Source of the DNA: Mustelus asterias
Taxonomy: Eukaryota
Length of the DNA: 64,000 bases
NCBI RefSeq assembly: GCF_964213995.1
Contig: NC_135804.1
Coordinates: 67,890,001-67,954,000 of the forward strand
Direction of reading: 5' to 3'
This document shows positions 4,482 through 55,358 of the stretch, in pieces. Both the position numbers and the translations under genes were made by a program. A model generated the notes under the pieces. It was given only the letters and a program-made list of their open reading frames with translations. It made no database searches and was not told the origin of the DNA. Numbering within the stretch: the stretch's first letter is position 1; each line of letters begins with the position of its first letter.

Positions 4482-4735
4482 GAAAGAAGTCTCACAAAAC
4501 CAGGTTAAAGTCCAACAGGTTTATTTGGGAGCAAACACCACTAGCTTTCGGAGAGCTGCTCCTTCGTCAGGTGAGAGGGAGTTCTGTTCACAAACAGGGG
4601 AAATAAAGACACAAACTCAATTTACAGAATAATGATTGTAATGCGAATCTTTACAGCTAATCAAGTCTTAAAGGTACAGACACTGTGAGTGGAGAGAGCA
4701 TTAAGCACAGGTTAAAGAGATGTGCATTGTCTCCA
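4482..4735 (-). mobile_element. Penelope-like element fragment (pLTR-type) with 14-bp flanking direct repeat (duplicate at 33913-34166)
   Basis: Flanked by gacagcatgtggca at 4468-4481 and 4736-4749. The minus strand has a hammerhead core followed by AATAAA. Confidence 0.7.
4539..4573 (-). ncRNA. Minimal type I hammerhead ribozyme motif (duplicate at 33970-34004)
   Basis: Minus strand CAC-CUGACGA-A-GGAG-CAGCU-CUCC-GAAA-GC-UA-GUG: core boxes, stem I, stem II and a short palindromic stem III (AGCU). Confidence 0.7.
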
Positions 4736-5109
4736 GACAGCATGTGGCAAGCAGGGCACCGACTCACAACATCTCCAATGACGTCCCCAGAATCAAGGAG
4801 ACATACTCCCATGCCACCCTTGCATGCCACAAGGTCCTGCATTGGTATTTATTCTCCCTTATCCCCACCCTGTTCTGGACCCAGGTGCGAGCGGGCATGC
4901 AGAGCTCAGATAAGAGTCACACCTGTTTGCACAATAGCAGCGTCACATAGTGTCACATAACGAGTCTTGATCACCCTCCTGTCTGCCACAGAAACATGCC
5001 AACAGAGCTTATAGAGGCCCACCACTCTGGTGTAAATTTGGCGCAGGGTTGACTCGGGGTACACAACGGGGGGCAGGTGGAATCCAGCAGCAGCAACACA
5101 GGCCCCCTA

Positions 5110-24050: not shown

Positions 24051-24205
24051 AACAAAGGTCTCCATCAGCCATGTAAAACGAGTGAAGGTGGAGAATGAAA
24101 CCCCGTGACAGGACAATGATGAGAATAAAGAAAGTGAACAGGTAGGGAGACAGGAGCAAGACAAGTTGACAGAATTGTAACCTGTTCCTGAATTTTTGAA
24201 ATTGC

Positions 24206-27200
24206 AAAGAACAAAGAACAATACAGCACAGGAACAGGCCCTTCGGCCCTCCAAGCCTGTGCCGCTCATGTGCCCACGAGAACATTCTTTTGTATCACTC
24301 TATTCCCAGTCTGTTCATGTGGCTATCTAGATAAGTCTTAAACGATCCCAGCGTGTCCACCTCAATCACCTTGCTTGGCAGTGCATTCCAGGCCCCCACC
24401 ACCCTCTCTGTAAAATACGTCCCCTGACATCTGTGTTGAATCTTGCCCCCTTCACTTTGAACCCGTGACCCCTTGTGTTCGTCACCTCCGACCTGGGAAA
24501 AAGCTTCCCACTGTTCACCCTATCTATGCCCTTCATAATTTTATACACCTCTATTAGGTCGCCCCTCATCCTCCGTCTTTCCAGGGAGAACAACCCCAGT
24601 TTACCCAATCTCTCCTCATAGCTAAGATCCTCCATACCAGCCAACATCCTGGTAAACCTTTTCTGTACTCTCTTCAAAGCCTCCACGTCCTTCTGGTAGT
24701 GTGGCGACCAGAACTGGATGCAGTATTCCAAATGTGGCCGAACCATCGTTCCATACCGCTGCAACATCATATGCCAACTTTTATATTCTATGCCCTGTCC
24801 AATAAATGCAAGCATGCCATATGCCTTCTTCACCGCCCTCTCCACCTGTGCTGCCACCTTTAAGGAGCTGTGGACTTGTACACCCAGGTCCCTCTGTGTG
24901 TCTATATTCTTGATGGTTCTGCCATTTATTGTATAGCCCCTCCTTACATTAAATCTACCGAAATGCATCACTTTGCATTTATTTGGATTAAATTCCATCT
25001 GCCATTTCTCCACCCAATGTTCCAGCCTATCAATAGCCTGCTGTATTCTTTGAGAATGTTCATCACTATCTGCAACTTCAGCAATCTTCGTATTGTCCGC
25101 AAACTTACTGATCACACCAGTTACATCTTCCTCCAAATCATTTATATAGATCACAAAGAGCAGAGGTTCTAGTACAGAGCCCTGCGGAACACGACTAGTC
25201 ACAGACCTCCAACCGGAAAAAGACCCCTCCACTGCTACCCTCTGTCTTCTATGGCTAAGCCAGTTCTCCACCCATCGAGCTAGCTCACCTTTTATCCCCT
25301 GAGATTTAACCTTTTGCACCAGCCTGCCATGCGGGACCTTGTCAAACGCTTTACTGAAATCCACATAGACGACATCCACGGCCCTTCCCTCATCAATCGT
25401 TCTTGTCACCTCCTCAAATAACTCAACCAAATTTGTGAGGCATGACCTCCCTCGTACAAAACCATGCTGTCTCTCGCTAATGAGATTGTTCAGTTCTAAA
25501 TGCTCATATATCCTATTTCTAAGAATCTTCTCCAACAACTTCCCTATCACAGACGTCAAGCTCACCAGCCTATAATTATCCGGGTTATCCTTCCTACCCT
25601 TCTTAAATAACGGGACCACATTTGTTATCCTCCAATCCTCTGGCACCTCACCTGTGTCCAGTGAAGAGACAAAGATTTCTGTTCGAGGCCCAGCAATTGC
25701 ATCTCTCGCCTCCCTGAGGAGTCTAGGATAGAAGCCATCCAGCCCTGGGGATTTGTCTGCCTTAATGTTTCCTAAAAAACAAAACACTTCCTCCCTTGTA
25801 AGTGAGATTTTTTCTAACGGGTCAACACATCTCTCTGAGACAATACCAGTCAACATGCCCCTCTGCTTTGTGAATACTGATGCAAAGTATTCGTTTAGGA
25901 TCTCACCTACTTCCTTTGGTTCTAAGCACAATTCCCCTCCTGTGTCCCTGAGAGGTCCGATTTTTTCCCTAACAACCCTCTTGTTCCTAACGTTTGTATA
26001 AAATGCCTTAGGATTCTCCTTAATCCTGTCTGCCAAGGACATTTCGTGATCCCTTTTTGCCCTTCTAAATCCCTGTTTGAGTTATTTTCGACTTTCTCTG
26101 TATTCCTCCTGTGCTCCATCTGTTTTTAGCTGCCTGGACCTCATGTATGCCTCTTTTTTCTTTTTGATTAGACGCCCAATTTCACTGGTTATCCACGGCT
26201 CCCAAATCCTACCTTTGCTATCCTTCCTCTTTACAGGCACATGCCTGTCCTGCAGTCCTATCAACTGCTCCTTAAAAGACTCCCACATGCCAGATGTGGA
26301 TTTACCCTCGAACAGCCTCTCCCAATCAACAGCCACCAAATCCTGCCTAATCCGGCTGTAGTTCGCCTTCCCCAATTCAGTACCTGTAGGACACCACTCA
26401 TCTTTTCCCATTACTATCCTAAAGTTTACAGAATTGTGGTCACTATTTGCCACATGTTCCCCTACTGCAACTTTGATGACCTGAGCGGACTCATTCCCCA
26501 GTACTAGGTCCAGTATAGCCCCCTCTCTAGTTGGACTGTCAACATATTGTTCCAAAGAACTGTCCTGTACACAATTTATAAATGCTTCCCCATCCAGGCC
26601 CCCAGCCCTAAGCGATTTCCAGTCTATTTGAGGGAAATTAAAATCTCCCACTACAACAACCCTATTTTTTCTGCACCTGTCCAGAATCTCCTTACATATC
26701 CGTTCCTCATCTTCCCGTGGGCTGTTGGGAGGCCTGTGGTATACCCCCAGCATAGTGACTGCGCCCTTCCTGTTTCTGAGCTCCACCCACAGTGACCCGT
26801 TACCTGACCCTTCCATATTGTCCACCCTCTGTACCGCTGTAATATGATCCCGAACGAGCATTGCTACTCCCCCATCTCTCCTCGCCCCTCCTCCGTCTCA
26901 TCTAAAACACTTATACCCCGGAATATGCAGCTGCCAGTCCTGTCCTTTTAACCAAGTCTCCGTCACTGCAACCACATCCAAGTTCTGCGCAAGCATTAAG
27001 ACTCTAAGCCCTTCTGTCTTGCCCGTGACGCTCCTTGCATTGAAGCATATGCATTCCAGACTTCCAGGCCCACTCAGGTCATCATCCCCCAGAATGCCCT
27101 TCCTCTAAGATAGCCTTGTCTTGGCCCCAACCTCGTCCCCAGCCTCTATGCTTATTGACCTATTGGTCTGATCCCCACCCCCCTGCCACATTAGTTTAAT

Positions 27201-27825
27201 CCCATCCGAACCACACTCGCAAAACTCCCAGCTAGGATATTCGTACCCCTCCAGTTTACGTGCAACCTGTCCTTCTTGTACGGGTGCCATCCTCTCTTGA
27301 AGACTTCCCAGTGGTCCACGAATTCGAAACCCTCCCTCCTGCACCAGTCCCTTAGCCACGCGTTCAGCTGTGCAATCTCCCTGTTCTTAGCCTCACTGAC
27401 TTGTGACACTGGGAGTAGTCCAGAGATCGCTACCCTAGAGGCCCTGCTTTTTAGCCGAATACCCAACTCCCTGAATTGCTCTCGCAGGACCTCCCTGCTC
27501 TTTCTGCCTACGTCATTTGCACCAATGTGGACAATGACGTCTGTCTGGTTACCCGCCTTCTTTAGGATGCTTCCTACCCGCTCAGTGACATCCAGGACCC
27601 CGGCATCAGGGAGGCAGACTACCATCCTGGAGTCTCGGTCACGCCCACAGAACCGCCTCTCTGTGCCTCTAACCATTTCATCCCCCACTACTATTGCTCT
27701 CCTCGTTCCCCTCTGTCCCTTCTGAGCCACAGGGCCCGATTCCGTGCCAGTGAACTGGTCACCGTGGCTTACCCCTGGAGGGTCATCCCCCACCCCGCCA
27801 CAGTATCCAAAATGGTATACTTACC
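24206..27825 (-). mobile_element. Young CR1 LINE, 5'-truncated in ORF1: SGNH esterase ORF1 (27191-27793), APE (26082-26861), RT (24366-26042)
   Basis: ORF1 VVGDEMVR / VHIGANDV / DRLH; APE VVVGDFNFP and SDHN; RT VPQGSVL and FADN (catalytic D lost). The 3' tail is (ttctttg)n. Confidence 0.95.
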
Positions 27826-27904: not shown

Positions 27905-29620
27905 TTAAAAATTTATTAATGTCACGTGTATTAGTATGCAGTGAAAAGTATTGTTTCTTGCATGCTATACAGGCAAAGCATACAGTACATGCAGAATAAA
28001 AGGAAGAGTGCAGAATGTCGTGTTTCAGCCATAGCTAGATTGTAGAGAAGGATTAACTTACTACGAGGTAGGTCCATTCAAATGGCTGATGGCAAAAGGG
28101 AAGTAATTATTATTGATTGGTACATGACCTCAGACTTCTGTATCTTCTTCCCAACGGAATAAGGTATGTCTGAGTTTCACAGGGTCCTTGATTATGCTGA
28201 CTGCTTTTCCGAGGAAGTGCTCAGTCTCGACAGAGTCAATGGTTGGGAGGCTTGTTTGCTTGATGGATGGGGTGTCGTTCATGATACTTCGTACTTTCTT
28301 GCGGTCTTTGACAGAGAAGTAGCCATGCCAAGCTGTGGTACAGCCAGAAAAAAATGCTTTCTGTGGTGCACCTCTAAAGCTTGGTGAGTGTCATCGAGTC
28401 ATAGAGTCATAGAGGTTGACAGCATGGAAGGAGGCCCTTCTGCCCAACGTGTACATGCTGCCCTTTTTTAAAAATCCCTCAACTCATCCCAATTGCCTGC
28501 ATTTGGCCCGTATCCCTCTATACCCATCTTACCCATGTAACTGTCTAAATGCTTTTCTAAAGTCAAAATTGTAACCCGCCTCTACAACTAACTCTGGCAG
28601 CTTGTTCCAGACATTCACCACCCTCTTTGTGAAAACATTGCCCCTCTTGATACTTTTGTATCTCTCCCCTCTCGCCTTAAACCTATGCCCGCTAGTTTTA
28701 GACTCCCCTATCTCTGGGAAAAGATATTGACTATCTAGCTGATGTGTGCCCCTCAATATTTTATAGACCTTCATAATATCACCCCTCAGCCTTCTGTGCT
28801 TCACGGAAAAAAGACTCAGTCTGTCCAGCCTCTCCTTATAACTCAAACCATCAAGTCCCGGTAGCATCCTAGTAAATCTATTCTGCACTCTTTCGAGTTT
28901 AATAATATCCTTTCTGTAAGAGGTGACCAGAACTGTACACAGTATTCCAAGTGTGGCCTTACCAATGTCTTGTACAACTTCAACAAGACGTCCCAACTCC
29001 TGTATTCAATGTCCTGACCAATGAAACAAAGCATGCTGAATGCTTTCTTCACCACTCTGTCCACCTGTGACTTCACTTTCAAGGAGCTATGAACATGTAC
29101 CCCTATATCTCTTTGTTCTGTCACTCTCCCTAGCACTGAGTAAGTCCTGCGCTGGTTCAATCTACCAAAATACATCACCTCGCTTTATCTAAATTAAATT
29201 CCATCTGCCATTCGTCAGCACACAAGCCCAATTGTTCAAGATCCCGTTGCAATCGGAGATAACTTTCTTCACTGTCCACTATGCCACCAATCTTGGTGTC
29301 ATCTGCAAATTTACTAACCTCCTATATTCTGATCCAAATCACTAATATAAATGACAAATAACAGCGGACCCAGCACTGATCCCTGAGGCACACCGCTGGT
29401 CACAGGCCTCCAGTTTGAAAACCAAACCTCTACAACCACCTGTCAAAAATACCAATTTTGTATCCATTTGGATACCCCTCGTTGGATCACGTGAGAGTTA
29501 ACCTTATGCAACAACCGACCATGCGGTACCTTGTCAAAGGCCTTGCGAAAGTCCATGTAGACAACATCAATTGCATTGCCCACATCTACCTTCTTGGTTC
29601 GCCATTCAAAAAACTCAATC
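27905..29620 (-). mobile_element. Rex1 3' fragment (27905-28395) followed by a CR1 3' fragment (28400-29620)
   Basis: LVRPHLEYCVQFWSP and VDVVYMDFRKAFDKVPHG, with a CR1 tail of short repeats at 28395-28415. Confidence 0.8.
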
Positions 29621-32600
29621 ATGTCATAGTGGACATGCCACATTTCGTTCACCTTCTGAGAATGTAGGGAGGATGTTGGGCTTTCTTATCTATAGCATCG
29701 GCGTGGAAGCACCAGGACAGGTTGCTGGTGATCTGGACATATAGAAACTTGAAGCTCTCGATCATTTCCACTTCATCCGTGTTGATGGAGGCAGAGACAT
29801 GTCTTCCTGAGGTAAATGATTATTTCCTTCACTTTGAGGAAGATTTTATTGTCATCCCACGAATCTGTCAAATTCTCTCTCTCTTTCCTGTATTCTGTCT
29901 CAGCATCGCTTGAGATCTAATCCATATGTGTGATCGCATTCTTTGTGCTGATGATACAATTCCTTTCTGATATTTTGATGAAATAAAGGTTTGAATATGA
30001 GATATTTATGAAATCCATAAACCTGTTCCTCTGTGCTCACTCATTTTATGCAATTGCTTAACAAACAAAATTGTTTCGTGGGAGTTAGTCCGAGGTCACC
30101 AAATGAAATGTACCATTTACTGTGAGTACTGTTTTCGCCAGTGGAGATAGTAACGTAGGGACAAATGTTTCCAGCAGACGATTGGTCACGTTGAGACAAC
30201 CAAACACACAAAAATTAATGCAGATGAAATCGAGAAGCTTATTGCCAATAATGAGCAATTGAACAAAAATGTGCTCAGTGTCGAGAAGCAACTTCCATGC
30301 ACAAAAGATCAATTTGCCAGTGAAAAGCTGGAATTGATATGAACAATTTCAAATGTGTCGCATCAATGATAATCTGGATGAAATAAATGCAACAACAATA
30401 AATCTTCCGTTAAAATTAGATTAACTGCAATATCAAAAAATTCCAGAATGTGTTGTGCAACAAAATATTTGAACAGGGAAAATGAATGGCCAGTGAAGCA
30501 TAAGAGGTGCTTAAAAATCAAGACTGATGGACGGTTTGAACTTCGTCGTGAGACGGTTAAGAAGATTTTTGAACTTTGATGCAATCCTGAAATTATGGAA
30601 GATGATCTTATATACTTGAAGGATCGATGATCATGGATACTTATATACAGTTGCATGTTAGGCTGACACAGAGTGTGGAGCAGCCGGAATCCTACCAATG
30701 GTTGAGTTTACAAGAGACCATTTGAAACAAACATATCAGTTTCATTTTCATGGCGGGTGTTTTACATCCTGTTGCACTGGTCAAGTAGCATAGCGGGGAG
30801 GGAAATTTAGCAGAAGACAAATTACTTGAAATGTGCGTGGTCTTCCACGATACGCCCAGGCCGTTTTGTCGAACGCAATCTGCATCGCACCCAATGTGCC
30901 CGATGTGAATTAAAATGTTTGTGACATCGTTACCATATCATTCGTGAATTCAGCATGGCCGGTTCCTCTTCCTGTACCTCCTGCCACCCATCTCCCACCC
31001 CCACAGCGTGACGTAATGTCGGCATTATTTACACATGAGACAGAATTTTACGAAAGAAATTCTAAGTGCCAAGCTGGCGTGAAAATGGGAGAGTTTTATT
31101 TCCGTTTATTGGCCGAGGCCAAATCAATACCTTATAGACGTAGAGAAGTGGGCATCGTGGGCAACACGGTGGCAAAGTGGTATGCACTGCTGCCTCACAG
31201 CGCCAGGGACCCGGGTTCATTTCCGATCTCGGGTTGTGTATGAGTGGAGGGTGCACATTCTCCCCGTGTCTGCGTGGTTTTCCTCCGGGTGCTCTGGTTT
31301 CCTTCCACAGTCCTAAGGTTTTACACCCTGTTGCACTGGTGAAGTAGCATAGTGGGGCGGGAAATGTTAGCAGAAGCCAAATAACGTGAAATGTGCCTAG
31401 TCTTCCACGATACGCCCAGGCCATTTTGTCGAGCGCAATCTGCATCGCACCCAGAGTGTGCCCGATGTCATTTAAATTTTTGTGACATCGTTACAATGCC
31501 ATTCACCGGTTAGGTCGATTGGCCACGCTAAACTGACCCTAGTGTCAGGGCATTCGTAGAGTAAATACGTGGGGTCACGGGAATAGGGCCTGGATGTGAT
31601 TGTGGTCAGTGCAGACTCAGTGGGCCGAATGGCCTCCTTCTGCCTGTAGGGATTTTATGGATTCTAAGAAGTTTTTAAAAAACTGCTAGGTCATTTCTCG
31701 CCACGATGTGAAGTGGGCGGGACCTCGCCAGGAAGCCTGCAGTTCAGATCGGAGCCACAACATGCACAGGCGTCAAAACTGGACGAAACGGAGAGCTGGC
31801 CAGATTGCTTGGGACGTTGGAAAGGGACGGCAGAGCAGCCTGGGAGGCGGTGGCATTGGCTGTCAGTGCGAGGGCACTGACACAGACAACCAGAAACTAG
31901 TACAGGAAGAAACTTAATTAGCTGTTCCATGCAGCAAGGGTGAGTATGATCATAGAAACCCGACAGTACAGAAAGAGGCCATTCGGCCCATCGAGTCTGC
32001 ACCGACCACAATCCCACCCAGGCCCGACCCCCATATCCATACATATTTTACCCACTAATCCCTCTAACCTATGCATCTCAGGACACTAAGGGGCAATTTT
32101 ACCATGGCCAATCAACCTAACCCGCACATCTTTGGATTGTGGGAGGAAACCGGAGCACCCGGAGGAAACCCACGCAAACACGAGGAGAATGTGCAAACTC
32201 CACACAGACAGTGACCCAAGCCGGGAATCGAACCCAGGTCCCTGGAGCTGTGAAGCAGCAGTGCTAACTACTGTGCTACCGTGACGCCCCACGCCCCTCC
32301 CCCACCCCCCCACGCTTTGCTGCTCCCACCCATCCTCCCCACGACAACTCGGAAGACAGCTGGGATGAAGGCGATGATGGGACCTCCTGTGTTGGCACAA
32401 GTCTCGTATCAGCTTCCACTTCGTATTCCCATCCCATCGACGATCACACTGGTGCTTCAAGTTAATGGTAGGCATCTGGGTCACTCTCTGGGGCACAGCA
32501 CACACCTGCTGACGTACATCGGATGGAGGAAGGAAATTCGGAGGCCGCTGGCACGTGGAACCCTGCCAGTGAGTGAGGACTCAGCTGACCCCAGGCAACA

Positions 32601-34540
32601 TGTTGGGCCTCTGCGGACAGTTCTCCCTCAGCTGCTGGAGATGCAGCAGCAGAGACCAGGAATGTAGGAGGGGCTGACAGCAACACTGGGCCAACGACGA
32701 GGCTGCTGGGAGGAGTCCCAAATCTTTCAGGACCAGCTGCTATTGCTGATCTCATGTGGTTCCCAGGTCCAAAATGAAAGTGGGGTGTCAGCGGTGGAAA
32801 GCCTGGGGTAGGAAATGATCACTTGAGTGGCAGGGTCCAAGCGATGGCTATGTCACAGCTGTCCACAGGCGATTCCCAGAGGGCCACAGCTGAGTCACAG
32901 CAGGCCACAGCTAAGTCGGAGTGGGCCATACCTGAGGGCCTCAACAAGCTTATCGAGATTCTGCAGCTGGTGGCTGAGAGGCTCGAAAGCTTGCAGGAGA
33001 CCAGTGGGACAGCGCCGAGCCACAGCGGGCTATGGCAGCAGCCCTTGGGAATGTGGCCCACTCTTATTAGGTTATGACTGAGGGAGTGCAGAGTATGGTC
33101 CAGTTTCAGAGGGCAGGTGCTGCTACCCTTGTCAGGTGCCCTCAGACTCAGAGCGCCATCGCTGAGCACTGAGCAGGAGGCCGAACGCAGGTGGGCCTCC
33201 AGAACTGGCAGGGCCCGGTGATGGTGGAGCTTCTGCAGTTCAGTGCAGAAGCACCAGCATCCCATTGAGTGACCCAGGGGCCCACAGGAACCCCGAAGGA
33301 GGAGGAAGGTCTGGGGCCCATGTCGGGGCATTGCACCCCAGAGATGCAGCTGTGACTATAGCTTCTGACTCCCTCCTTCCTGACACCTTCCTGACTATCT
33401 CAGGGGCATTGTGATGAACAAGATGACATGGATACGTTTGTGACATCTGAAAGCCAGACGGGGTCCTCAATGTTCAGGCCCTCCAGAGGACGATTGCCAA
33501 AGGGCATCACAGAGCAGAGCACAGGGCAAGGTAGGCAGCTGCCCTCCTCCTCCTCTGGCGTACATCCTGGGGAGACACCGAGACACAGTAGAGTTAAGAA
33601 GCTATAACGTCACCAAAATGGCATGGGTAAAGGACCGCAACTGTTAAATTGAGGAATTAGGCACTGTAAAGTTTCACTTCCACTTATTATATATGAGCAC
33701 TTAGTTTGAGGGCCCAGTTATTGACAGCAATAAATGTTGCTGCCCCCACAGCTGTTTCTAAATTGTCTGTGATTAGCCTCCAATAGGGATGACCATACCC
33801 CGATCTTCACCAGAGGGACTATGCATGTTGATGTTCATGGAGGAGGGCCCTCAGTGCACCACATTTTGAAAATCAACGCATTCCAATCATCCACTGGCGA
33901 CAGCATGTGGCAGAAAGAAGTCTCACAAAACCAGGTTAAAGTCCAACAGGTTTATTTGGGAGCAAACACCACTAGCTTTCGGAGAGCTGCTCCTTCGTCA
34001 GGTGAGAGGGAGTTCTGTTCACAAACAGGGGAAATAAAGACACAAACTCAATTTACAGAATAATGATTGTAATGCGAATCTTTACAGCTAATCAAGTCTT
34101 AAAGGTACAGACACTGTGAGTGGAGAGAGCATTAAGCACAGGTTAAAGAGATGTGCATTGTCTCCAGACAGCATGTGGCAAGCAGGGCACCGACTCACAA
34201 CATCTCCAATGACGTCCCCAGAATCAAGGAGACATACTCCCATGCCACCCTTGCATGCCACAAGGTCCTGCATTGGTATTTATTCTCCCTTATCCCCACC
34301 CTGTTCTGGACCCAGGTGCGAGCGGGCATGCAGAGCTCAGATAAGAGTCACACCTGTTTGCACAATAGCAGCGTCACATAGTGTCACATAACGAGTCTTG
34401 ATCACCCTCCTGTCTGCCACAGAAACATGCCAACAGAGCTTATAGAGGCCCACCACTCTGGTGTAAATTTGGCGCAGGGTTGACTCGGGGTACACAACGG
34501 GGGGCAGGTGGAATCCAGCAGCAGCAACACAGGCCCCCTA
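29432..34540 (+). repeat. Segmental duplication copy 2 (matches 1-5109)
   Basis: Same sequence as 1-5109. Here the Harbinger transposase continues uninterrupted past 34540. Confidence 0.97.
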
Positions 34541-38329: not shown

Positions 38330-40150
38330 GGCCCCTTACACTCAGAAAGGGGAGAATTTATAACGGAAACAAAGAAATGGCTGATGAACTACATTTCTCG
38401 TTTGTTTCTGTCTTCACAAAGGAATACATGAATAATGTACGAGATGTTCCGAGAGAAAAACGTTTTAGATAGGAGCTGAAGGAAATCAGTATGAATAGAA
38501 AAATAATTTTGGGGAAATTGACGGGATTAAACGTCGATACATCTTCAGTTCCTGATAAACGTCATCTCAGAGTAGTTCAGGAAGTGGTCCTGGAAATAAA
38601 GCATTCGCTGGTGGTTATTTCCCAAGATATTTTGAATTCTGGCCTAGATCGTACAAATTGGAGGGTAGCTAATGTAAGCCCACTATTCAAAAAGGGAGGT
38701 AGGCAGCAAACAGGGAACTAGAGACCAATTAACCTATTGTCAGTTCTGGGGAAGTTGATAGATTCAATTATGTAAGATTTCACAGCTCAGCATTTAAAAA
38801 GCAGGAGCATAATCAAACAAAGCAACACGGAATTATGAAGGGAACCATACTTAATGAAACTATTGGAATTCTTTGAGGATGTACCGAGTGGATTTGATGA
38901 TGGAGAAACGGTGCATCTGGATGTTGTCACGTTAAAACGGGTGGCATTGTGCTTGCGTCCTGAGGTGGATAGAAAGCTGGTTAGCAGGTGTGAAGAATGT
39001 ACTTGGCATAAATGTATCTTTTTCCGACTGACAGGAGTGACTATTAGGTATTGAAGATATATGTGCTGATCATGTTATATATTAATGATTTACAAGAGAA
39101 TACTAAATGTTTTATCTCCGCGTTATCCAATAATACAATGTTGGGTTGGAGGGTGAGCTGTGAGGAGGATGCAGAGATGCTTCTGCATGATTTGGAAAGG
39201 CTCAGTGAGTCGGCATATGCATGGCAGATGCAATATAATGTGAATGAAAGTGAGGTCATCCAGTTCAGCAGCGATAACAGGAAGACAAATTATAATTTGA
39301 ATGGGTGTAAATTGAGAGATGTGGATAATTATTGAGGCCTTGCTGTCCTTGTGCATCAGTCACTGAAAGTAAGCATACAGTTACATCCAGCTTGCAGTAA
39401 AGAAGGCAGATGTTGTGTAGACTTCCATAGCGAGAGGATTTAAATTTAGGAATAGAGATATATTCCTGCAATTTTACAGGGCTCTGGTAAGTTCCTTACC
39501 AGAGCCCTGTAAAATTGCAGGAATATATCTCTATTCCTAAATTTAAATCCTCTCGCTATGGAAGTCTACACAACATCTGCCTTCTTTACTGCAAGCTGGA
39601 TGTAACTGTATGCTTACTTTCATGTCTGGAATATCGTGTGCAGTTTTGGTGTTCTTATCTGAGGAAGAATGCCCTTGCTATGGGGAGTGCATCCAAGATT
39701 TATCAGGCTGATTCCTGGGATGGTTAAGATTATATTCATTGGAGTATAGAAGAATGAGAGCGAATCTCATAGAAACGTATCAAATTCTAATGGAATTTCT
39801 GAATGGTAGATTCAGAAAGAATGTTTTTGATAGGAAGGAGGTTCAGTACTAGGGGTGAGAGTTTTAAGTTAAGAGCTAAACCTTTTAGAATTGAGGACAT
39901 GAGACCGTTTGCCATACAACGAGTAGTGAATCTGTGGAATTCACTGCCAAAGGTAGTAGAGACCAACACATTGAGTGATTTCAAAAATAAATTAGAAATA
40001 GCTTTTGGGTTAAATGGATCAAGGGAATTTGGGGAAGTTGGGATCAGGATATTGAATTCGATGATGATCTATGATCAAAATAATTGGCAGGGCAGGTTGG
40101 AAAGGCCGACTGGCCCACTCTGCTTTCACATTTCTAAACTTCTAGGTTTT
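38330..40150 (+). mobile_element. Old CR1 ORF2 3' half
   Basis: NWRVANVSPLFKKG, LLEFFED, LYINDL and QRVVNLWNSLP in broken frames. Confidence 0.85.
39364..39622. repeat. Perfect inverted repeat, 128-bp arms, 3-nt spacer (TTC)
   Basis: 39364-39491 is the reverse complement of 39495-39622. ORFs 39265..39471(-) and 39515..39727(+) begin with the same 36 aa. Confidence 0.95.
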
Positions 40151-43900: not shown

Positions 43901-45032
43901 ATTTGAAGAATTTGAAGTTAATGGACATTTAAACCAGGCGTGACAATGGTCATGCTTAACAATATAAAGCTGTGATATCAGATTGTCATCCATTAAAATA
44001 GAGGCAGAATATCCGGGAGGGAGTTGGAGGTGAACGGTGGTAGTAGAAGGACAGTGTGAACAGTGGAGATATAAGATGCTGAGATAGGCAGATAAATGAT
44101 TCAGTCAGCCCAAAAAAATGAGATTTGGCATTTAGCTTGGCTGGGAGTCAATTTAAAAGCTTGATATTTCAATATGATTACTTATACGAGCATAAATCTG
44201 GAACAATATCTGGACGCAGGAAAGGCAAGAGGAAATAATGTTTTCTGACGAATTAGCAGACTGCTGACTCGCCATTTCGGAATATCCAGAATGAGTGAAC
44301 CGCTTTGGAGGAAATCAATGGGCTTTGGAGGAAATCAATGGGCTCAGTCGTGAAATGATGTGGCACCTGCCCCAGACGTGCTAAATCGTTTCGCAACGAT
44401 ATCACAAGCTGAGCACGAGAAGGATCAAGGATGGAAAACCAATTTTAAAAACCTGTGAGGTCAGAAGGCGACTATTTATTGAAAATGTTGCAATTTGAAA
44501 AATGAAAGATACATGGATATTTTCACGTCACACATCAAAGGAGGAGTTGGGAGAGGCGGGTGGTGGTGACAATGATAGCACACATAGAGATTTAAACGAT
44601 TCCTGGAATGATAATCAAATGAAATCCAAATTCATGTGAGAAAATAAGATGAACATTAGCAAATTAAGGAGCGAATCAAGCGTATCACGTCTGGATATTG
44701 GGTAGAGCAAAGATTAGCCAATCTATTAAAATTAAAAGTAAATTAGAGTAGAAAATGACGCAGTCTTTCTTTCATGTTATCCATATATGTGGAATGGCTA
44801 GAATTCGGAAATCCGACGACGGATGAGCATGGTCAACAACGATGGAGTGCCTTGCGTGGAGTGAGTTTCAAGGCAAACAGGAAATCCACAAGATATATTT
44901 GGAGAAAAAATCCACCTGCGATTTTCGAAAATGTCAAAGGCCTGATGTAAAGGCAGTTACCGAGGAAAAGATACACGAAGGTGAATACATCGATTATGCA
45001 GTCATCGCGCAACACTTCCTTGTTTGCTTAAT

Positions 45033-45161
45033 TTAGCTTTTCGTTTTCACGGCTGCGTATGTTAACCTTGTTTCTCCGAATGTCGTTTTTGACGATGACC
45101 TGGAACCTGCCAGATTCAGAGCAACGTAAGTCAATTTGCTCTCAGCGGTGCTCTGTCTGGT
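45033..45161 (-). CDS. Exon 7, terminal cytoplasmic exon with ITIMs LTYVAL and LTYAAV
   Basis: TRQSTAESKLTYVALNLAGSRSSSKTTFGETRLTYAAVKTKS*. Acceptor tttacAG, TAA at 45035-45033. Translated by hand. Confidence 0.87.
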   Translation of the reverse strand, partial: TRQSTAESKLTYVALNLAGSRSSSKTTFGETRLTYAAVKTKS

Positions 45162-48100
45162 CTGTAAATCAACGACAGGGAGTATTTTACTATTTATTAA
45201 CTTAAATGTATCGAAATTGCATCAAGTTGATTTTCAATACAATCTCAAAAGCAAATTATAGCAGACAAGATTAAAGTTTCCACGTGGGAATTGAGATTTA
45301 CCTCTGTATATACCGTGTGTTCTCTGTGTTGTTTCGGCATTTCGCCACGCTTGGAACCGGTCAGATAAAGAGCAGCGTACAGCAGTTTGCCTTCGGCTGA
45401 ATTTCGTTCCTTCTAGGAATTCAATGTTTAGTATTCAGTAAGTTTCATCTTTCGGACACAAAATCTTGCATACATACATACAAATTAGAAACCGAAGCAG
45501 GCCGCTCAACCTCTAAAACCATTTTGCTATTCCTTAAGACATGTTTGATCCCCGTGTGGCCTCAATTTCACTGTCCTTTCTGCGCCCTGAATCTCCAAGC
45601 CTTACAAACTGCCCTAATTCAGTAAGCTCCACAAATATCTACGAATTTCCGTATCGCTCTAACCTCCTAGAGTTCCTTGGCATTTCCCAGCCATTATTCA
45701 CAGTAGTTCTTTACTTTGTAAAAATAACAAATCAAATTAGTGTTTTTTCAGTTTTCTCTCCTGTCAATCAAAAAGTGATCGAAGTCAACCTTGAAGTAAT
45801 TGAATGAATTTGCCTTCACCGCTCTCTGATTAAATCAGTTCTACAGATGCGTGGCCCACTGAGAGGGAAATAAATCAAATCTCCTCATCCTTGTCTTAAA
45901 TGGTAAATCATGCTTTTTCAAACGGCATCACGTATTTTTACCCTTTGCTACAAAGTATCACATTTTTGCAACGTCCATTCTGTCAAGACGACTCAGCATT
46001 TTCTACTTTTCAAAAGATCACTTAGTCTTCTAAAGTGAGGAGGGTACAGGCCCAATCTGTTAAAAATGTCCTCATTAAATAACACGCTCATCCCAGCAAT
46101 CAATCTGGTGAAACTTCTCTTAATTATTTGAACTGAAGTTATTTTATTTCTTCATGAAGGACCAAAGCTGCGTACAATACGTTTGGGCGGGAATTTTACC
46201 GGCACGCCCACGCCGATTCCGGGGGCGGTCGCGACTCGGAGGACGGCTTCCTCCGAAGGCCTCGGGCGGGATAGTACAGACCTCGGGCGGAGGTGCCGGT
46301 CAGATTCTTCCTTCGGCACCAATTCTCAGCTGCAGCACTACACTTTATAATCCACTCCTCTTGCAATGAACGGTAACATTCCATTGGGCATCCCAGCTAC
46401 TTATGCGCCTTCTCAACCATATATTTCGGTTCATATTATTGTGTTCTGATTCATGTACCGGGACATCCGTATGTCTCTGTACATCAGAGTCTAAAATATC
46501 TTCGCATAAAAAAAATATGTGTTTTATTCTGACTGCTAAAATGGACAAATTCGCGATCTCTCACGTCATCTGTCATTTTTTGCACACTCTTTACCTATCC
46601 GTGACCCTCTGCAGACTCCATATTTCCCCCTTGCCACTTACTCACCCATCTACTTTCTTTCATCAACATCTTTAGCAGCCATGCGTATAGTGTTATCATC
46701 CAAGTCGTTGATATCAATTGTAAATAATTGAGGACCCAAGACTGATACACATGACACTACAATTGATACATATTTTTCCAACCAGATAAAAGGCCAAAAT
46801 GTGCCTACTCTATGTTTCCTGACAGCTAGATAGTCCTTGATAGATGCTATCACCTGTGTCATGTGATCTTGCTCTGTGTGGAACCTTTGATGTCGAACAT
46901 GATGGAATGTCTTTTCGAAATCCACAGGATCCACAGTAACTCCACAGGTTCGGTTTTATTCACTTTGCTTGTTACTTTCTCAAATAACTCATACATTATG
47001 TAATAATAATTTCCAGGTTACAACGCCATGTTTACTCTGCTAACCTCCATCAGATTTCCCAAGTGCCCTGTTACAACTCCTTTATTAATGGATTCCAGCA
47101 TTTTCCCAATGGCAGATGTTAAGCTAATTGCCCTGTAGTTTCTGGAATACTGTTTCCCTCCTTTCTTGAGCAAAGGAGCTACATTCGCTGTTTTATTCAA
47201 ATCTAATGTGTCGCTGCCAGAATCTAGGACATTTTGAAAATTTAAATCCAAGTCATCCAATATCTCAGCAGTTACTTATTGTAAGACCGTCGTAACAGTT
47301 GCATCATGCTTGGGAATTTTCAGATTTTTCGTTATATTATTTTTTCAGCAGCATCATCCTGCTGAAAGTAATCGTTTTATGCTCTTGCTTCCGTTTCGCA
47401 TCGCGATATCCAATTATTTCTGGTATATGCTTTGTATCCTCGACAGCGATATATGTTCCGTTGATTCTGCTTTCGCTTGATTGGCAATCCTAATTCGTCA
47501 GACTCGCTCTTTGGAGGAGCAGCACATTATAAGTAGTTGCTTTTACATCACCTGTGGAAACTCTTCCGATTTGTGCTGCATATTAATAGCTAACGATCGG
47601 TCCTGCTCTGATGTTTCACTTCATTTTTAGCCATTATTCGCTGTAATTTATGCAACTTGTTCGTCTAACCTGCCAGTAAACTTCAGGGAATTGATTTTGT
47701 TTATTTCAATTTGATCCTGTTGATAACTTCCTTAGTAAGCCGCGGATAATATGTCCGTCCCCTCGAGATGTTTTATTCTTTCTGACTCAAATGGCTGAGA
47801 ATTAGAAAACATCTCCTTAAGTTTCTGATAAAAGCACGACAGCTGTGGATGCTGGAATAACAACAGAAAATGCTTGAAAATCTTAGCAGGTTGACAGCAT
47901 CTGTAGAGAGAAAATAGAACGAAGTCCAGATCACCCTTCGTCAGAGCTTCGTCAGATCCCTTGTCAGCATTTTGCAATGACAAAGAATCGAGGATGGAAG
48001 TAGCAAAGATCAAAGACCATAACAGCACAGAAACAGGTCGTTTGGCCCTGCAAGCTGAAATGTCAGCTTGTGAAAGAGAAAGACGGGCTGCCTGAACAGT

Positions 48101-51100
48101 ATAAATAGATTTTTTTTCTGAATCGCCTGGTGGATACATTTTTTTATTCTTAAGCAAAGAATAACGGGTGATCTCATTTTAAACCGCGTAAGAAGGATAG
48201 GCAACAGTGTTGCTCTCTATTTTCGTTACCGATTCTACACTGAGATTAGAAATTTGAATTTTATTTGTAATATAAATGCCGTGGCACGTTTTCACCATGC
48301 TGCAGCTTGGTTTGCACAACAAGAAATGCAAATCTGCGAACCTTATTCTCACTATCTTTAGTAGCCGAAAAAGGTATGTCATTTTAGCTAATATAGATGG
48401 AAAGTTAAAACTGTATTGAACTATTCAAAAAGCTGGCAGAGTTTGCAAACGCTTCGACCATTTTTCTAATTTTACTTGTTTATACATAAAGTTGCGCTTT
48501 TCCAGAAAAGGGGAAAAGTCAAGTCCAAATCCCCACATGTTTAAAAGAGATTTATTTAATGTGATGTCATTCACCTGAACTTGAGAACACAAGTTCAGGA
48601 TTGAGAACAAAATGTGCTTACCTCATCTGTCCGCTGTGTAGTATTTATTGATTTTTTCTTTGCACCTGGTGAAATTCGAAAAGGATAACGTATAAATAGG
48701 GGGCATATTTGCATTTGACCCGATGTCAATTAAGTAAAATGCAATTCATGCCAGCAAGTTATAGTGATACGCTGATTTCGTAATATATCACAAAATGTTC
48801 AAACCAAACGAATTTGTTTCGCTATCGCTTCTGTATTAAAGCTACGCAGGCACCATTGCACTATTTAAGTTACATTTTTATGGTTAGATAATGCAGTTCG
48901 GAAAATGAAGCTGTGAGCATTATAATGTCAGATGCTCATGTAATACTTGAGTTGAAGCAACATGTAAGTGTGAAGGTATTTTTCCGTCAGCTAATTATGC
49001 GAATTATACCAAAAAGCAGCTTTGCTCCCGCTTATAGTTACTCGAATCGGATATTTTAAGATTTCGCCTACCAGTAAATTATTTCCTTCAGTGTGAAAAT
49101 TCTCATTCATACCTTTGCACTTTATGACTCCAATCACTAGCATTAGGGTCAAAAATAGAATTGCAAGTACACCACCGGACCATCCACCGACCATAAGAAC
49201 ATTGATTTTAGAGGGATTAGCTATCAAAATTAGAAAATGTCATGTCAACCATATGTACACAGCTATCAATATCAAATGCATAATTTTCAATTACGCTGTG
49301 AATCGAACATCATGATACAAAATATAAAACTTCAGTACATCATTTTCATTATCGATATTTATGCAGCTGTTTTACGAATCGTTCGAAAAAACGTGGTTGA
49401 AACATATAGATCATAGAATCCTTGAGTCGTAGAATACCTACAGGGCAGAAGGAGGCCATTCATCCCATCGAGCCTGCACCGACAAAATTCCCACGCAGGC
49501 TCTATCCCCGCAACTCCACGTATTTACGTTTCTAAGGCCCCTGACACCAAGGCACAATTTAGCATTGCCCACCTAACACACACATCTTTGGAGTCTGGGA
49601 GGGAACCGGAGCAGCCGAAGGAAACCCGCGCTTTCGCAGGCAGAATGTGCAAACTCCACACAGTCATCCGAAGGCCGAATTGAACACGGGTCCCTCGCAC
49701 TGTGAGGCAGCTTACCTCTGTGCAAGCCTGTTGGAGAAAGAGCAGCAATGTTGAAGAAGGTGCCCATTGAATGGGCACATTCCCATTCATGACTATACAG
49801 AATGCAATCGTTTTCAACTGATTGTGCCAATCAAAAAACAATTAAAATGTTGTTCCAAGTTTCATTGCACCACACGCAGAAAAGGTCCAAACAAATCGCT
49901 TGAGATCATCTTTCAAGGAAAGATGCATTACCGTGTATTTACTCATCTTCTCACAATTACCTGTGACCCTATTTTTAGTCGCATTACGAGTGAGTAACAA
50001 CTTTATAAATGAGGAATCAAGTTGGTTTAGTTCGTATCTGCAGCTATATGAAAAGATTCAATTGTTCGATTCCATAGCTCAGCGATCCATTATTTTTCAG
50101 TGCCTCGATTGAACATCGATGCTGCATCATTTTCTAAGTTGCAATTTTATGCGGTTAATCTGATTTATGGGAGCAATACTGAAGACTCAAACCCATTATT
50201 GGTTAGGTTGCATGATGCAGTCTACAACATATCCTATTTTAAAACCAAATGATTCGAAACCTTCGCCCAAAGAATACAATAAGTTTCATCAATATATGAG
50301 CATCAAGCTACTCCAGTAATCACTTCCTATGCACCATCGTTTTTCATGCATTTTTGTGAAGGGCGAAAGACTAAAAACTATCATATTTCATATAAGATTA
50401 CCTTCATCAAAAAACGTGTAGCTGGCATTTGCTGGCATTGAGCTTGAAACGTGATAAACTTGACAGATATAAACTGTGCCTTGTTCGATCGCCTGCTGTT
50501 TCAGGTTGCTGACAACTTCAAAAAGCCCCTCGGAATTTGCTTGTTGTTCATTTTGGAATCCGCTGAGAATTTGAGCACCGTTTTTATGCCAGGTGAGGTT
50601 AAATCCTTTCGGGTAAAAAGCTGCAGTTTTGCACTGGAGCCTAATAGTAGCAGATGAGATCTCTTCGGATGATATGGACATAATTTTCAGGGGAGCCGCT
50701 GGAGCTAAATTCAAGATAACAAGACAGATAAATTGAAAAAGTGAGCTTCTGCTCTAAAAAATTGTAATTTTATTAATTACGTACAGCTTGTTCTTGGCAA
50801 GCAAGTTTCTTTAATAATCAGTATTTTTATATTGCTGCGCGGTGTTTTTCATAGATTTTCTAGGTCCCTCCACCCGTACGCTATTAAAGGACTACCAGCA
50901 TGTTTAGCAAAATTGACTTGCATAATTTGTCCCTCTTTATTTAAACCTATGTGTTACAGTCGGTATACTGCATTTAAGGATTTAGCGATTGGGAGAAGGG
51001 GGAGGGCCGGGGGTAGAGGAAAGGTGATAGCGTAGCGATATTATCGCTTGGCAACTAATCCAGAAAATCAACTAATATTCCCGGAACTGGCAAGTGGTGG

Positions 51101-54100
51101 AATTTGAATTCCATTCGCAATATCTGGAACTAAGAACCGACTGATCACCATGAAACCATTGTCGATTGTCTGGGGAAAAACGCGCATCTGGTTCAGTAAT
51201 GTATTTTAAGGAACGAAATCTGCCGTCTTCTCGGTCTGGTCTACACGTGACTCCAGATTCACAGCAATGTTTACGGAGTGCTTATACTTCAATGCAAGGA
51301 GCGTAGCAGGTAAGCCTGACGAATTTAGGGCCTTAATGCTCACGAGGAATTTGGATGTGGTTGCGGTGACAGAGACTTGGTTGAAAGAGGGACAGGACTC
51401 GCAGCTGAATATTCCGGGGTACAAGTGTTTTAGGCGAGACAGTGGAGGGGCCAAAAGAGGTGGGGGGGGGGGGTAGCAGTATTAGTTGGAGAGCATATTA
51501 CTGCGGTGCAGAGGGAGGACAATTCAGAGGGGTCGTGTAACGAGTCACTCTGGGTGGAGCTTAGAAACAGGAAGGGCGCAGTCACTATGTTGGGGGTATA
51601 CTACAGGCCCCCCAACAGCCCAAGGGAAGTGGAAGAACGGGTATGTCAGGAGATACTGGATAGGTGCAGGAAAAATAGGGTTGTTGGAGTGGGAGACTTC
51701 AATTTCCCCGGTATAGACTGGAAATCGCTGAGAGCTGGGACTCTGAATGGGGAGGAATTTGTAAAATGCATACAGGAGGGTTCTTTGGAACAATATGTAG
51801 ATAGCCCGACTAGAGAGGGGGCTATACTGGACCGAGTACTGGGGAATGGGCCTGGTCAGGTCTTCAAAGTTTCCGTAGGGGAACATGTGGCAAATAGTGA
51901 CCAAAATTCTGTTAGCTTTAGGATAGTGATGGAAAAGGATGAGTGGTGTCCCAAGGGTAAGGTGTTGGATTGGGGGAAGGTTAACTTTAGTGAGATTAGG
52001 CAGAAATTGGCAGCTCTTGATTGGGAGAGGCTGTTTGAGGGTAAATCCACATCTGGCATGTGGGAGTCTTTTAAGGGACAGTTGTTAGGGCGACGGGACA
52101 GGCATGTGCCTGTAAAAAAGAAGGATAGGAAGGGTAGGATTCGAGAACCGTGGATAACCAGGGAAATTGAGGGACTGATCAAAAAGAAAAGAGAGGCGTA
52201 TGTTAGGTCCAGGCAGCGAAAAACGGAGGGAGCTCTGGAGGAGTACAAAGGAAGTAGGAAGTAACTCAAATGGGGAATTAGAAGGGCAAAAAGGGGTCAC
52301 GAAATGTCCTTGGCAGACAGGATTAAGGAGAATCCCAAGGCATTTTATTCATGCGTTAGGAACAAAAGGGTTGTCAGGGAAAAAATCGGACCTCTCAGGG
52401 ACAAAAGTGGGGAATTATGCTTGGAGCCCAAAGAAGTAGGGGAGATCCTAAATGAATACTTTGCGTCGGTATTCACAAAGGAGAGGGATGTGTTGACTGG
52501 GAGAGTCTCGGAGGGGAGTGTTGAACCGTTGGTGAAAATCTCCATTACATGTGAGGAAGTGTTAGGTTTGTGAGAGAATATAAAGGCTGACAAGTCCCCA
52601 GGGCCTGATGGAATCTATCCAAGGCTGGTCAGGGAGATGAGAGATGAAATCGCTGGGTCTCTGACGCAAATCTTTGTCTCGTCACTGGACACAGGTGAGG
52701 TCCCAGAGGATTGGAGGATAGCTAATGTGGTCCCCTTGTTTAAGAAAGGTAGGAAGGATAACCCGGGTATTTATAGGCCGGTGAGCTTGACGTCCATGGT
52801 GGGGAAGTTGTTGGAGAAGATTCTTAGAAAAAAGATGTATGCGCATTTAGAAAGGAATAAACTCATTAACGATAGTCAGCATGGTTTTGTGAGAGGGAGG
52901 TCATGCCTCACTAACCTGGTAGAGCTTTTTGAAGAAGTGACTAGAATGGTTGACGAGGGAAGGGCCGTGGATGTCGTCTATATGGACTTTAGTAAAGCGT
53001 TTGACAAAGTCCCGCATGGTCGGCTGGTGAAAAAGGTTGGATCTCATGGGTAAAGGGGGAGGTGGCTAGATGGGTGGAGAACTGGCTTGGTCACAGAAGA
53101 CAGAGGGTGGTAGTGGAAGGGTCTTTTTCCGGCTGGAGGCCTGTGACTAGTGGTGTTCCGCAGGGCTCTGTATTGGGACCTCTGCTGTTTGTGATTTATA
53201 TAAACGATCTGGAAGAAGGTGTAACTGGGGTGATCAGTAAGTTTGCGGACGACACAAAATTGGCAGGACTTGCAGATAGTGAGGAGCATTGTCAGAGGCT
53301 ACAGAAGGATATAGATAGGCTGGAAATTTGGGCAAAGAAATGGCAGATGGAGTTCAATCCTGATGAATGCGAAGTGATACATTTTGGTAGAAATAATGTA
53401 GGGAGGAGCTATACGATAAATGGTAGATCAATAAAGTGTGTAGATACGCAGAGGGACCTGGGTCTGCAAGTCCACAGATCCTTGAACGTGACGTCACAGG
53501 TGGAGAAGGTGGTGAAGAAGGCATATGGCATGCTTGCCTTTATAGGACGGGGCATAGAGTATAAAAGTTGGGGTCTGATGTTGCAGATGTATAGAACGTT
53601 GGTTCGGCCGCATTTGGAATACTGCATCCAGTTCTGGTCGCCACACTACCAGAAGGACGTGGAGGCTTTGGAGAGAATACAGAGGAGGGTTCCCAGGATT
53701 TGCCTGGTATGGAGGGGCTTAGTTATGAGGAGAGATTGGGTACACTGGGGTTATTCTCCCTGGAAAGACGGAGGATGAGGGGAGACTTAATAGACATGTA
53801 TAAAATTATGAAAGGCATAGATAGGGTGAACGGTGGGAAGCTTTTCCCCAGGTCGGTGATGACGTTCACGAGGGGTCATAGGTTCAAGGTGAAGCGGGGG
53901 AAGTTTAACACAGATATCAGGAGGAGATATCTGACACAGAGAGTGGTGGGGTCCTGGAATGCGCTGCCAGGCAGGGTGGTGGAGGCAGACACACTGGGAA
54001 CGTTTAAGACTTATCTAGATGGCCATATGAACGGAGTGGGAATGGAGGGAATCAAAAGAATGGTCTAGTTTGGACCAGGGAGCGGCACGGGCTTGGAGGG

Positions 54101-55358
54101 CCGAAGGGCCTGTTCCTGTGCTGTATTGTTCTTCGTTCTTTGTTCTAATGTTGTTTACTCTGAGCAAGGACAACTAAGGATGGACATTAAATGCTCGCCA
54201 GCCAGCGAAGCCCAAGTCCCACGAATAACTAAAAAAGAAACAATTGTTGACACCAGCCATTCAGGAATAAACGTGGATGATAGAAGCTTGAAAGGCGCCT
54301 CCAAACGTTTGGATTGTGAGCCCCACTCGCTTGTAATTTGCGAAAGGGCATTAAAAATGCAAATATTGCGAGCGACTATAAAATTATTCATCCCGTTACA
54401 ACGTTCCCACATTGAAAACGAATTTTACTTATTAGTTTTGCTTGGCAAACTTCAAGTCAAGTAGCATTTCTTTAAGATAGGGATTTGATAAACTTTTCAG
54501 TGTCGTTGCAACTGCAAGTTTTCCACTTTGTTGAACATCTGTTCTTCTAATCAAGTGAATGTGCTTTCAGCGCTCTGCATTTATTTATTTTAATGGTCTA
54601 TTAACCTTCTTTTATTGACTCCATCTACTATGCATGACATATTTTCAACTTACCATATATGAGTACTTGCACCGCAATATCTTTCACAATCATCCGATGC
54701 TGAATTTTGACTGCACAGTGATATGTTCCGGCATCCGGTATGTTGACATTCAGGAGTTGAAGGTACGCTCCACCTTTCATTATCTGGAAGCGTTTTCCGC
54801 TGTCCTCCTGCAGCAACCTCTTATTACCATCTTTCCACCAGAAAGCCGTTGCGTTTATAAAGTCGGTATGGAAAGGGAAAGGACATCGCAAGGTTACGTT
54901 TGTGCATCTGAGCGCCTTTATTGGTTCAATATCCGATGTGCCCATAGCAACTATAAACAAAAATGAACACACACATACTAAATCATACATATGCAATAAA
55001 AGTTGATGTATACTACGAAAATAACATCACCCGTTCAGTCCACATATACCGTAACAATTTAATGTGCCTCACTGCTAGAATTATTCTCGAGTTCCAGCAT
55101 TTGTATTTCGACTTGAGATTTCTAAATATGTTTTACTCACCCAGACCCTTCCGACCACTAGGAACACGTGGCATGGCAATAAACACAATTTTAAAAAAAA
55201 TAAAGACATTCACTTTTCCGCCAACTATGAGATCACCTTACTGTTGCGTCTGGCTCGCGAATAGTCATAGAAAACAAAATGAAAACATAAAATAGAAATC
55301 TACCTGGAAGGAAAATCGACAAAAAAACTTTGCCCCAAAGCGAACAACCCATGACCAT
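45033..55358 (-). CDS. Seven-exon IgSF inhibitory receptor: leader-V-C1-TM-cytoplasmic ITIMs, 348 aa (SIRP-like / V-C1 type)
   Basis: Exons 55304-55358, 54654-54950, 50402-50704, 49113-49220, 48622-48665, 45302-45412 and 45033-45161. All introns are GT..AG with phases 1,1,1,1,0,0. The joined length is 1047 nt with no internal stop. Confidence 0.88.
45302..45412 (-). CDS. Exon 6, cytoplasmic, ITIM LLYAAL plus TVYTE
   Basis: KERNSAEGKLLYAALYLTGSKRGEMPKQHREHTVYTE. Acceptor ttcctAG, donor gag|GTAAAT, 111 nt, phase 0-0. Not in the ORF track; translated by hand. Confidence 0.8.
45470..47450 (-). mobile_element. Old CR1 fragment in intron 5, containing a ~130-bp MITE (46185-46315)
   Basis: LGPQLFTIDINDLD and TANVAPLLKKGG. 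MITE termini gggcgggaattttaccggcac / gtgccggtcagattcttcc. Confidence 0.7.
48622..48665 (-). CDS. Exon 5, short cytoplasmic exon GAKKKSINTTQRTDE
   Basis: Acceptor tttcaccAG, donor gag|GTAAGC. The 44 nt convert phase 1 to the phase 0 required by the next exon. Confidence 0.8.
49113..49220 (-). CDS. Exon 4, transmembrane segment
   Basis: ANPSKINVLMVGGWSGGVLAILFLTLMLVIGVIKCK: hydrophobic and uncharged, with a basic stop-transfer. Acceptor ttttgatAG, donor g|GTATGA, 108 nt. Confidence 0.9.
49405..49715 (-). mobile_element. V-SINE in intron 3
   Basis: Tail gaaggaggccatt, V core and B-box remnant. Confidence 0.75.
50402..50704 (-). CDS. Exon 3, C1-set Ig domain
   Basis: LQCKTAAFYPKGFNLTWHKNG ... 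NSEGLFEVVSNL ... YICQVYH carries the FYP and CxVxH C1-set signatures. Acceptor atttAG, donor g|GTAATC, 303 nt, phase 1-1. Confidence 0.93.
51272..54146 (+). mobile_element. Young CR1 LINE (APE plus RT, several stops), antisense in the V-C1 intron
   Basis: [31 protein letters not shown] and FADD. The tail is (ttctttg)n. Apparent aatgtt target-site duplication inside an older repeat. Confidence 0.95.
54654..54950 (-). CDS. Exon 2, V-set Ig domain
   Basis: Motifs NVTLRCPF (B-strand Cys), FWWKDG (C-strand Trp) and LQLLNVNIPDAGTYHCAV (DxGxYxC). Acceptor tttgtttatAG, donor g|GTAAGT, 297 nt, phase 1-1. Confidence 0.93.
55304..55358 (-). CDS. Exon 1, signal peptide MVMGCSLWGKVFLSIFLP
   Basis: ATG at 55358, hydrophobic core, phase-1 donor cag|GTAGAT. 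It joins the V exon to give ...IFLP-VAMG|TSD, a plausible signal cleavage site. Confidence 0.75.

Follow-up and report, generated by a model that had tools for sequence, protein, structure and literature searches.

The window, a 64,000-nucleotide stretch of the Mustelus asterias genome (NC_135804.1, positions 67,890,001 to 67,954,000), carries on its minus strand a gene for an Ig-C1-transmembrane (TM) receptor with a predicted inhibitory tail built from repeated exons. Six exons (exons 2–7) join as a single open frame of 329 residues followed by a stop codon. A scan for ATG/donor combinations returned eight candidate leaders, and the one nearest to the Ig exon (exon 1, 55304–55358) has an ATG, a hydrophobic stretch and a phase-1 donor, CAG/GTAGAT (slashes mark splice sites). 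Exon 2 (54654–54950) encodes the N-terminal Ig domain, which is V-like and lacks the J-type glycine motif; its matches to the Pfam Ig, V-set and I-set models fall below the curated cut-offs. Exon 3 (50402–50704) encodes a C1-set Ig domain (Pfam C1-set, E 1.7e-11, above the cut-off). Exon 4 (49113–49220; phases 1-1) encodes the TM segment, whose core contains no charged residue; it has weak matches among the paralogs and lies outside the cover of the contigs from sequencing run X3. It is followed by a short cytoplasmic exon of 44 nt (exon 5, 48622–48665; phase 1 to 0), by tail exons 6 and 7, and by a 3′ UTR (44467–45032) with an AATAAA at 44480–44475. A possible 12-nt in-frame micro-exon between the C1 and TM exons (49716–49727, minus strand) sits at the edge of a high-copy repeat, has no X3 RNA support and has a donor score of 10.2; donor scores here and below were computed from approximate consensus frequencies and are usable for ranking only. 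A degenerate copy of the start of exon 5 and its acceptor lies at 48092–48133 (minus strand; 7 of 2,000 shuffles reach its score), is followed by GC in place of GT and is bypassed in the X3 contig.

Four sequencing runs contain the stretch, none of them catalogued as RNA. The introns are covered without splice joints in X1, X2 and X4, and X3 is treated as RNA-like solely from its splice joints. Contig 17 of X3 (853 nt, depth 2) joins 48667–48622, 45412–45302 and 45161–44467 with canonical intron ends and no mismatches, thereby linking exon 5 to exon 6 and removing the last intron. It ends 8 nt beyond the distal AATAAA, although a contig end is no proof of a transcript end. Contig 22 covers the C1 exon, also without mismatches to the window. 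The X3 base at 48631 and the base at 50418 in the C1 contig match this gene copy and differ from three near-identical copies elsewhere in the genome; because these bases fit only this copy, it is taken as the likely source of the contigs. A spliced form that includes exon 6 thus exists and most likely comes from this copy. The first-pass annotation had predicted a phase 0-0 exon 6 and a spliced 45302/45161 junction, and both are present; one of its refuting conditions, that exon 6 is never included, is contradicted by the same contig. This spliced form is the one tail isoform observed (a single X3 contig, depth 2). Because contigs lose minor forms, the X3 contig says nothing firm on intron retention or exon skipping, and the missing X3 cover over the intron was given no evidential weight.

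The tail exons share a 37-codon module with two tyrosines. Exon 6 (45302–45412; 111 nt, phase 0-0) is the internal copy, which contains the ITIM LLYAAL and ends in TVYTE at the donor GAG/GTAAAT. A GT-AG intron of 140 nt (45162–45301) separates it from the coding part of exon 7 (45033–45161), the terminal copy, which contains the ITIMs LTYVAL and LTYAAV and the stop codon. The acceptor at the start of exon 6 is a tandem one (TAG AAG, 45415–45410, minus strand), and the X3 contig takes the first AG. As claimed in the earlier annotation, exon 6 read through its donor aligns with exon 7 without gaps, with 13/42 identities and with Tyr 12, Tyr 35 and Val 38 shared. The local protein score of 51, compared with a shuffle mean of 19.3 (SD 3.9), was matched by 0 of 10,000 shuffles, and the score of the DNA alignment by 0 of 2,000. 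The DNA likeness is uneven, with 40 of 63 bases identical in the first 63 nt and 14 of 48, near background, in the next 48. No clear homology was detected between the flanking intron and UTR sequences of the two exons (193 and 479 of 2,000 shuffles reach the score), and the score for the last 60 nt of the introns preceding them was matched in 27 of 2,000 shuffles. Shuffle-tested alignment found no homology of intron 6 to intron 5 or the 3′ UTR, which a recent whole-exon duplication would be expected to leave, and a search for a decayed first-type module inside intron 5 gave no convincing match. The exon alignments support the interpretation that a two-tyrosine signalling exon is present twice, as exons 6 and 7. 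The terminal-exon duplication originally proposed for this tail is supported by this homology and appears wider than claimed, since the layout is family-wide.

In a genome search, contig C4 yielded 57 C1 exons and 54 first-domain exons related to those of this gene, and most of them fall in two clusters (58.8–60.0 and 67.6–70.0 Mb). The C1 and first Ig exons of the gene are homologous to those of the clustered paralogs and its tail carries the two-tyrosine module, which places it in the clustered family. Three more copies of the gene (G000:C4:67784570, 67845541 and 69287370; L003/L009, L002/L011 and L004/L010, respectively) have tails that are 97–100% identical. The L010 copy has a stop in exon 6 and has lost Thr at −2, and a deletion at the end of exon 7 lengthens the tail of the L009 copy. 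A module-profile scan of 10–30 kb downstream of the 57 C1 matches plus the window (58 loci) gave 41 matches, 20 non-terminal and 21 terminal, in 23 loci. In the remaining 35 loci no module was found within this range; these may be short-tailed genes or have tails farther away. Module number varies from one to three, and the repeated two-tyrosine exon recurs across paralogs and other species, a comparison that the first-pass annotation had called for. L026 has three modules, and L042 carries near-identical module exons at 4084–4209 and 4786–4911, 702 bases apart, which represent a very recent repeat of the exon duplication.

The position of the donor relative to the second tyrosine is constant among the internal copies. 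Two of the 20 non-terminal modules are shortened (L022 and L024), and 18 reach the position of the second tyrosine, which is retained in 17 (His in one), often together with Thr at −2. All 18 have GT exactly at Tyr+3, with donor scores of 7.2–9.4. Many are recent duplicates, so that the 18 amount to about nine distinct types and cannot be counted as independent; for the second copy of L042, with no later exon detected, the donor was the sole ground for classing it as internal. Among the terminal modules, 19 of 21 were scorable; GT is present at the same site in 8 of the 19, and none scores above 4.1. Four of them have latent donors scoring 3.3–4.1 (GAA/GTAAAC and GAA/GTGAAC), one change away from a strong donor.

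Database proteins from chimaera, sharks and rays carry the repeated two-tyrosine module, with junctions read off annotated proteins, not DNA. In the chimaera protein P0002 the module repeats every 37 residues, as here, and the apparent junction reads TVYAQ/T. For 14 proteins chosen for having repeated modules, 26 of 27 leave-one-out tests told first modules from second ones across species; module similarity is 41.8 within genes versus 40.2 between genes. The modules thus sort by position, with no greater likeness between two from one gene, a pattern that suggests a single old duplication, probably before the split between chimaeras and sharks about 400 million years ago. By similarity, the first half of exon 6 falls with second-type modules (32 vs 15); against its own exon 7 it scores 46, compared with at most 38 in 13 other genes, and support for placing exon 6 in the module tree is weak (53–66). 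A later duplication of the terminal exon and a conversion of the 5′ half of exon 6 from exon 7 would both fit this oddity. In the three-module proteins P0183, P0182 and P0132 (chimaera and Heptranchias), read at the protein level only, the second junction seemingly falls two residues later, and the +3 residue of the middle module would therefore lie in its own exon. The Heterodontus models P0012 and P0015 have an extra VG at the module junction, as if the donor lay 6 nt downstream, and His in place of the tyrosine there.

In the minus-strand sequence of the window, the exon 6 donor GT begins the Val codon of TVYTEV, in agreement with the first-pass annotation. Its account of the spliced product was also accurate: splicing changes this motif to TVYTET and adds the two ITIMs of exon 7, and the tail motifs read, in order, LLYAAL, TVYTET, LTYVAL and LTYAAV. 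Three of these, all except TVYTET, match the ITIM consensus (S/I/V/L)xYxx(I/V/L) (PMC12151841, excerpt). The ITSM consensus TxYxx(V/I) is matched by TVYTEV in the DNA and is unmet in the spliced product. If the last intron were retained, the tail would end in TVYTEV plus 17 residues, in a read-through frame of 18 codons from the Val followed by TGA (45245–45301, minus strand); this short isoform is hypothetical and without RNA sighting, there being no read-through contig in X3 (depth 2). Any Tyr-x-x before a phase-0 donor reads as YxxV, because GT starts the codon and every GTN encodes Val. The read-through ITSM is therefore no evidence of selection.

Based on these findings, we consider constitutive splicing of exon 6 to exon 7 likely; the predicted inhibitory tail would then contain three ITIMs plus TVYTET as a weakened site. 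At the duplication of the terminal exon, a ready AG/GT donor would have been provided by the Glu/Gln-Val codons in the last motif, and this donor, which plausibly arose from the motif's own Val codon, would cut the motif just before the Tyr+3 residue. The codon that opens the next exon would then determine the +3 residue, which would vary between genes by point mutation (Thr, Asn and Ala versus Ile and Val), not between transcripts. Fifteen junctions could be reconstructed in this genome, with Thr as the +3 residue in 13, Ala in 1 and Ile in 1, the last in a stop-containing exon. The residue is Thr in 5, Asn in 2, Ile in 2 and Val in 2 of 11 tyrosine-bearing relatives from five other species, a count read from proteins, with two His-bearing Heterodontus proteins omitted. 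Four of these 11 preserve a consensus ITSM or ITIM in the spliced protein, the first codon of the next exon giving Ile or Val. Because Thr, Ile and Val codons are single-base steps apart, the motif likely changes between genes by mutation of that codon. ITIM receptors recruit SHP-1/SHP-2-type phosphatases after phosphorylation, and the three ITIMs of this tail, once phosphorylated, would be predicted to do the same.

The first-pass annotation had instead proposed a toggle between an ITIM+ITSM isoform and a triple-ITIM isoform, in which regulated retention of the last intron, or polyadenylation within it, yields the short form beside the three-ITIM form. A transcript whose stop codon has no exon junction downstream should escape nonsense-mediated decay, and this would hold for retention here, as the intron is short and last. 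Moreover, the second tyrosine is conserved in internal modules. The intron also contains the AATAAA that had been suggested to serve a short isoform (45198–45193, minus strand), and the hexamer is kept in all four near-identical copies. However, copies that are 97–100% identical share features that mean little, and an AATAAA turns up in 15% of shuffled versions of the intron, which is 70% AT. In 11 paralog introns from outside the four-copy group (108 to 1,828 nt), AATAAA follows the read-through stop 7 times, compared with 7.1 expected, so the hexamer is present but its occurrence among paralogs is at chance. Read-through tails among paralogs range from 1 to 73 residues, with 5 versus 42 in close paralogs, and neither a conserved alternative tail nor a conserved poly(A) signal was found among the paralog introns examined. 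The read-through motif of paralog L044, TVYAQV, equals ITSM1 of CD229, which binds SAP with a KD of 3.4 uM (PMC4610628, excerpt), and the chimaera UniRef model P0131 continues as TVYTQV into non-module sequence; the latter may, however, be a gene-model error, with no transcript seen for P0131, and the Val is automatic with any phase-0 GT. The exon 6 donor is of ordinary strength in this gene, scoring 8.8 compared with 7.8–10.6 for the four other donors, and X3 shows the spliced form as the sole form. These results do not support the toggle, which we regard as unlikely. Two other in-frame sites were considered as donors: a downstream one at 45283, which would retain the Val, was rejected with a score of 0.2, and an upstream GT at 45313 scores 4.3 and is not seen in the X3 RNA contig. 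A broader proposal, that throughout the family a donor has occupied the final residue of a switch motif since before the chimaera/shark split, with retention giving a SLAM-type ITSM tail and splicing an ITIM-rich one, and with some genes having fixed the 'on' state via the first codon of the next exon, is improbable. Splicing might also tune the number of ITIMs, not the type of motif, with exon 6 as a cassette. Its phase 0-0 permits this, since the skipped product stays in frame with two ITIMs 23 residues apart, and the family itself spans tails of one to three modules. The single X3 contig nevertheless retains exon 6, which has canonical splice sites and a strong donor, and proteins with one module (P0013, for example) differ in sequence from those with two (for example P0012), so that they are apparently separate genes; we find skipping very unlikely.

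Constitutive splicing does not fully account for one observation, namely that the second tyrosine and Thr at −2 are kept despite the non-canonical spliced motif. One reading of this, possible if somewhat doubtful, is that the spliced TxYxxT is itself a working non-canonical docking site, for example for a SAP-like adaptor recognising positions on the N-terminal side of the tyrosine. Besides the 17 of 18 internal copies here, 12 of the 14 first modules in database proteins have the tyrosine, and Thr occurs most often at +3, from chimaera to this shark. Most SH2 domains need and bury a hydrophobic residue at pY+3, which argues against such a site, whereas SAP also reads flanking residues through contacts outside the pY and +3 pockets (PMC7337045, excerpt). 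Some relatives, however, carry His instead of the tyrosine (P0012, P0007/L057), and L022 and L024 have a shortened module. A docking site of this kind would be compatible with constitutive splicing and would alter only the interpretation of the second tyrosine.

The closest resemblance is to V(J)-C1-TM receptors of cartilaginous fish, which share with this gene the C1 family, the two-tyrosine repeat, its 37-residue period and the apparent junction at Tyr+3; a J-type motif ends the V domain in 33 of 46 relatives but is absent from the first Ig domain here. Relatives such as XP_042196355.1 and XP_007902824.2 (Callorhinchus), XP_067853494.1 (Heptranchias) and XP_051884095.1 (Pristis) bear automatic NCBI/UniRef names, including 'tyrosine-protein phosphatase non-receptor type substrate 1-like' (SIRP-like) and 'tapasin-related protein-like'. 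SIRP proteins have a V-C1-C1 ectodomain and a tail with repeated tyrosine pairs. SIRP alpha (SHPS-1) is thus like this gene in its V plus C1 ectodomain type and its paired tail tyrosines, but has two C1 domains, whereas here a single C1 exon lies between the first Ig and TM exons and there is no J motif. SIRP is named among VJ-joined IgSF genes (PMC11599192, excerpt). No SIRP chain was found among the PDB matches of relative P0118 at E values up to 1e-12. As a linkage marker we used NSFL1C (SEP domain), which we take to be a neighbour of SIRP; SEP-domain matches, which are domain-level and not named genes, occur on C7 and C20 and not on C4. The second SIRP-neighbour marker, PF11566, has one match, on C20, that is not assignable to a gene. 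By analogy, the receptor may work like a SIRP-type ITIM receptor. PRARP, said to have been described by Fu and colleagues in 2019, reportedly has a V-C1 layout with inhibitory motifs. It is a non-rearranging VJ gene family (PMC10751288 and PMC11599192, excerpts), and kinship of the present family with it is a lead only. PMC12227049 (excerpt) mentions neither SIRP, ITIM nor PRARP, and the main texts searched, mostly of open papers, contained nothing on the tail exons of this family or on a donor inside an ITSM.

The PD-1-like tail suggested by the first-pass annotation stands in the DNA, where an ITIM is followed by an ITSM, but fits the hypothetical retained tail only. PD-1 has tyrosines Y223 and Y248, and its motifs have other consensus sequences (PMC12151841, excerpt). 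The two motifs of the retained tail are 23 residues apart, and the observed spliced tail has no ITSM. PD-1 itself has a single V domain and lacks C1 (PMC11599192, excerpt), and the Ig plus C1-set ectodomain encoded here rules out PD-1 identity. In CEACAM1, regulated splicing produces long and short cytoplasmic isoforms that differ in ITIM content (PMC4113144, excerpt). Those isoforms are demonstrated and regulated, whereas here one form is seen and the proposed change affects one motif residue at the junction.

The gene offers a clear case of exon duplication extending an inhibitory tail, the new donor probably having come from the Val codon of the motif itself; the shark receptor family to which it belongs is large and has been little described. 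The splicing switch proposed earlier probably just reflects how splice sites are spelled. There is also a warning here, as any Tyr-x-x before a phase-0 donor will mimic an ITIM or ITSM when genomic sequence is read through or gene models are poor. Were retention both real and regulated, one altered residue at the junction would shift the receptors between adaptors (SAP versus SHP), and this in a family of ancient origin.

Elsewhere in the window, two stretches of 5,109 bases (1–5109 and 29432–34540) are 100% identical, either because they duplicated very recently or through an artefact of assembly, and the first of them may reach past the window start. Positions 39364–39622 form a near-perfect palindrome of 259 bases that is 98.8% self-complementary. 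Two LINE-type retroelement copies (24205–27820 and 51275–54142) are 84% identical; the former matches RVT_1 and a GDSL-like esterase domain, and the latter sits in the intron between the Ig exons of the receptor gene.
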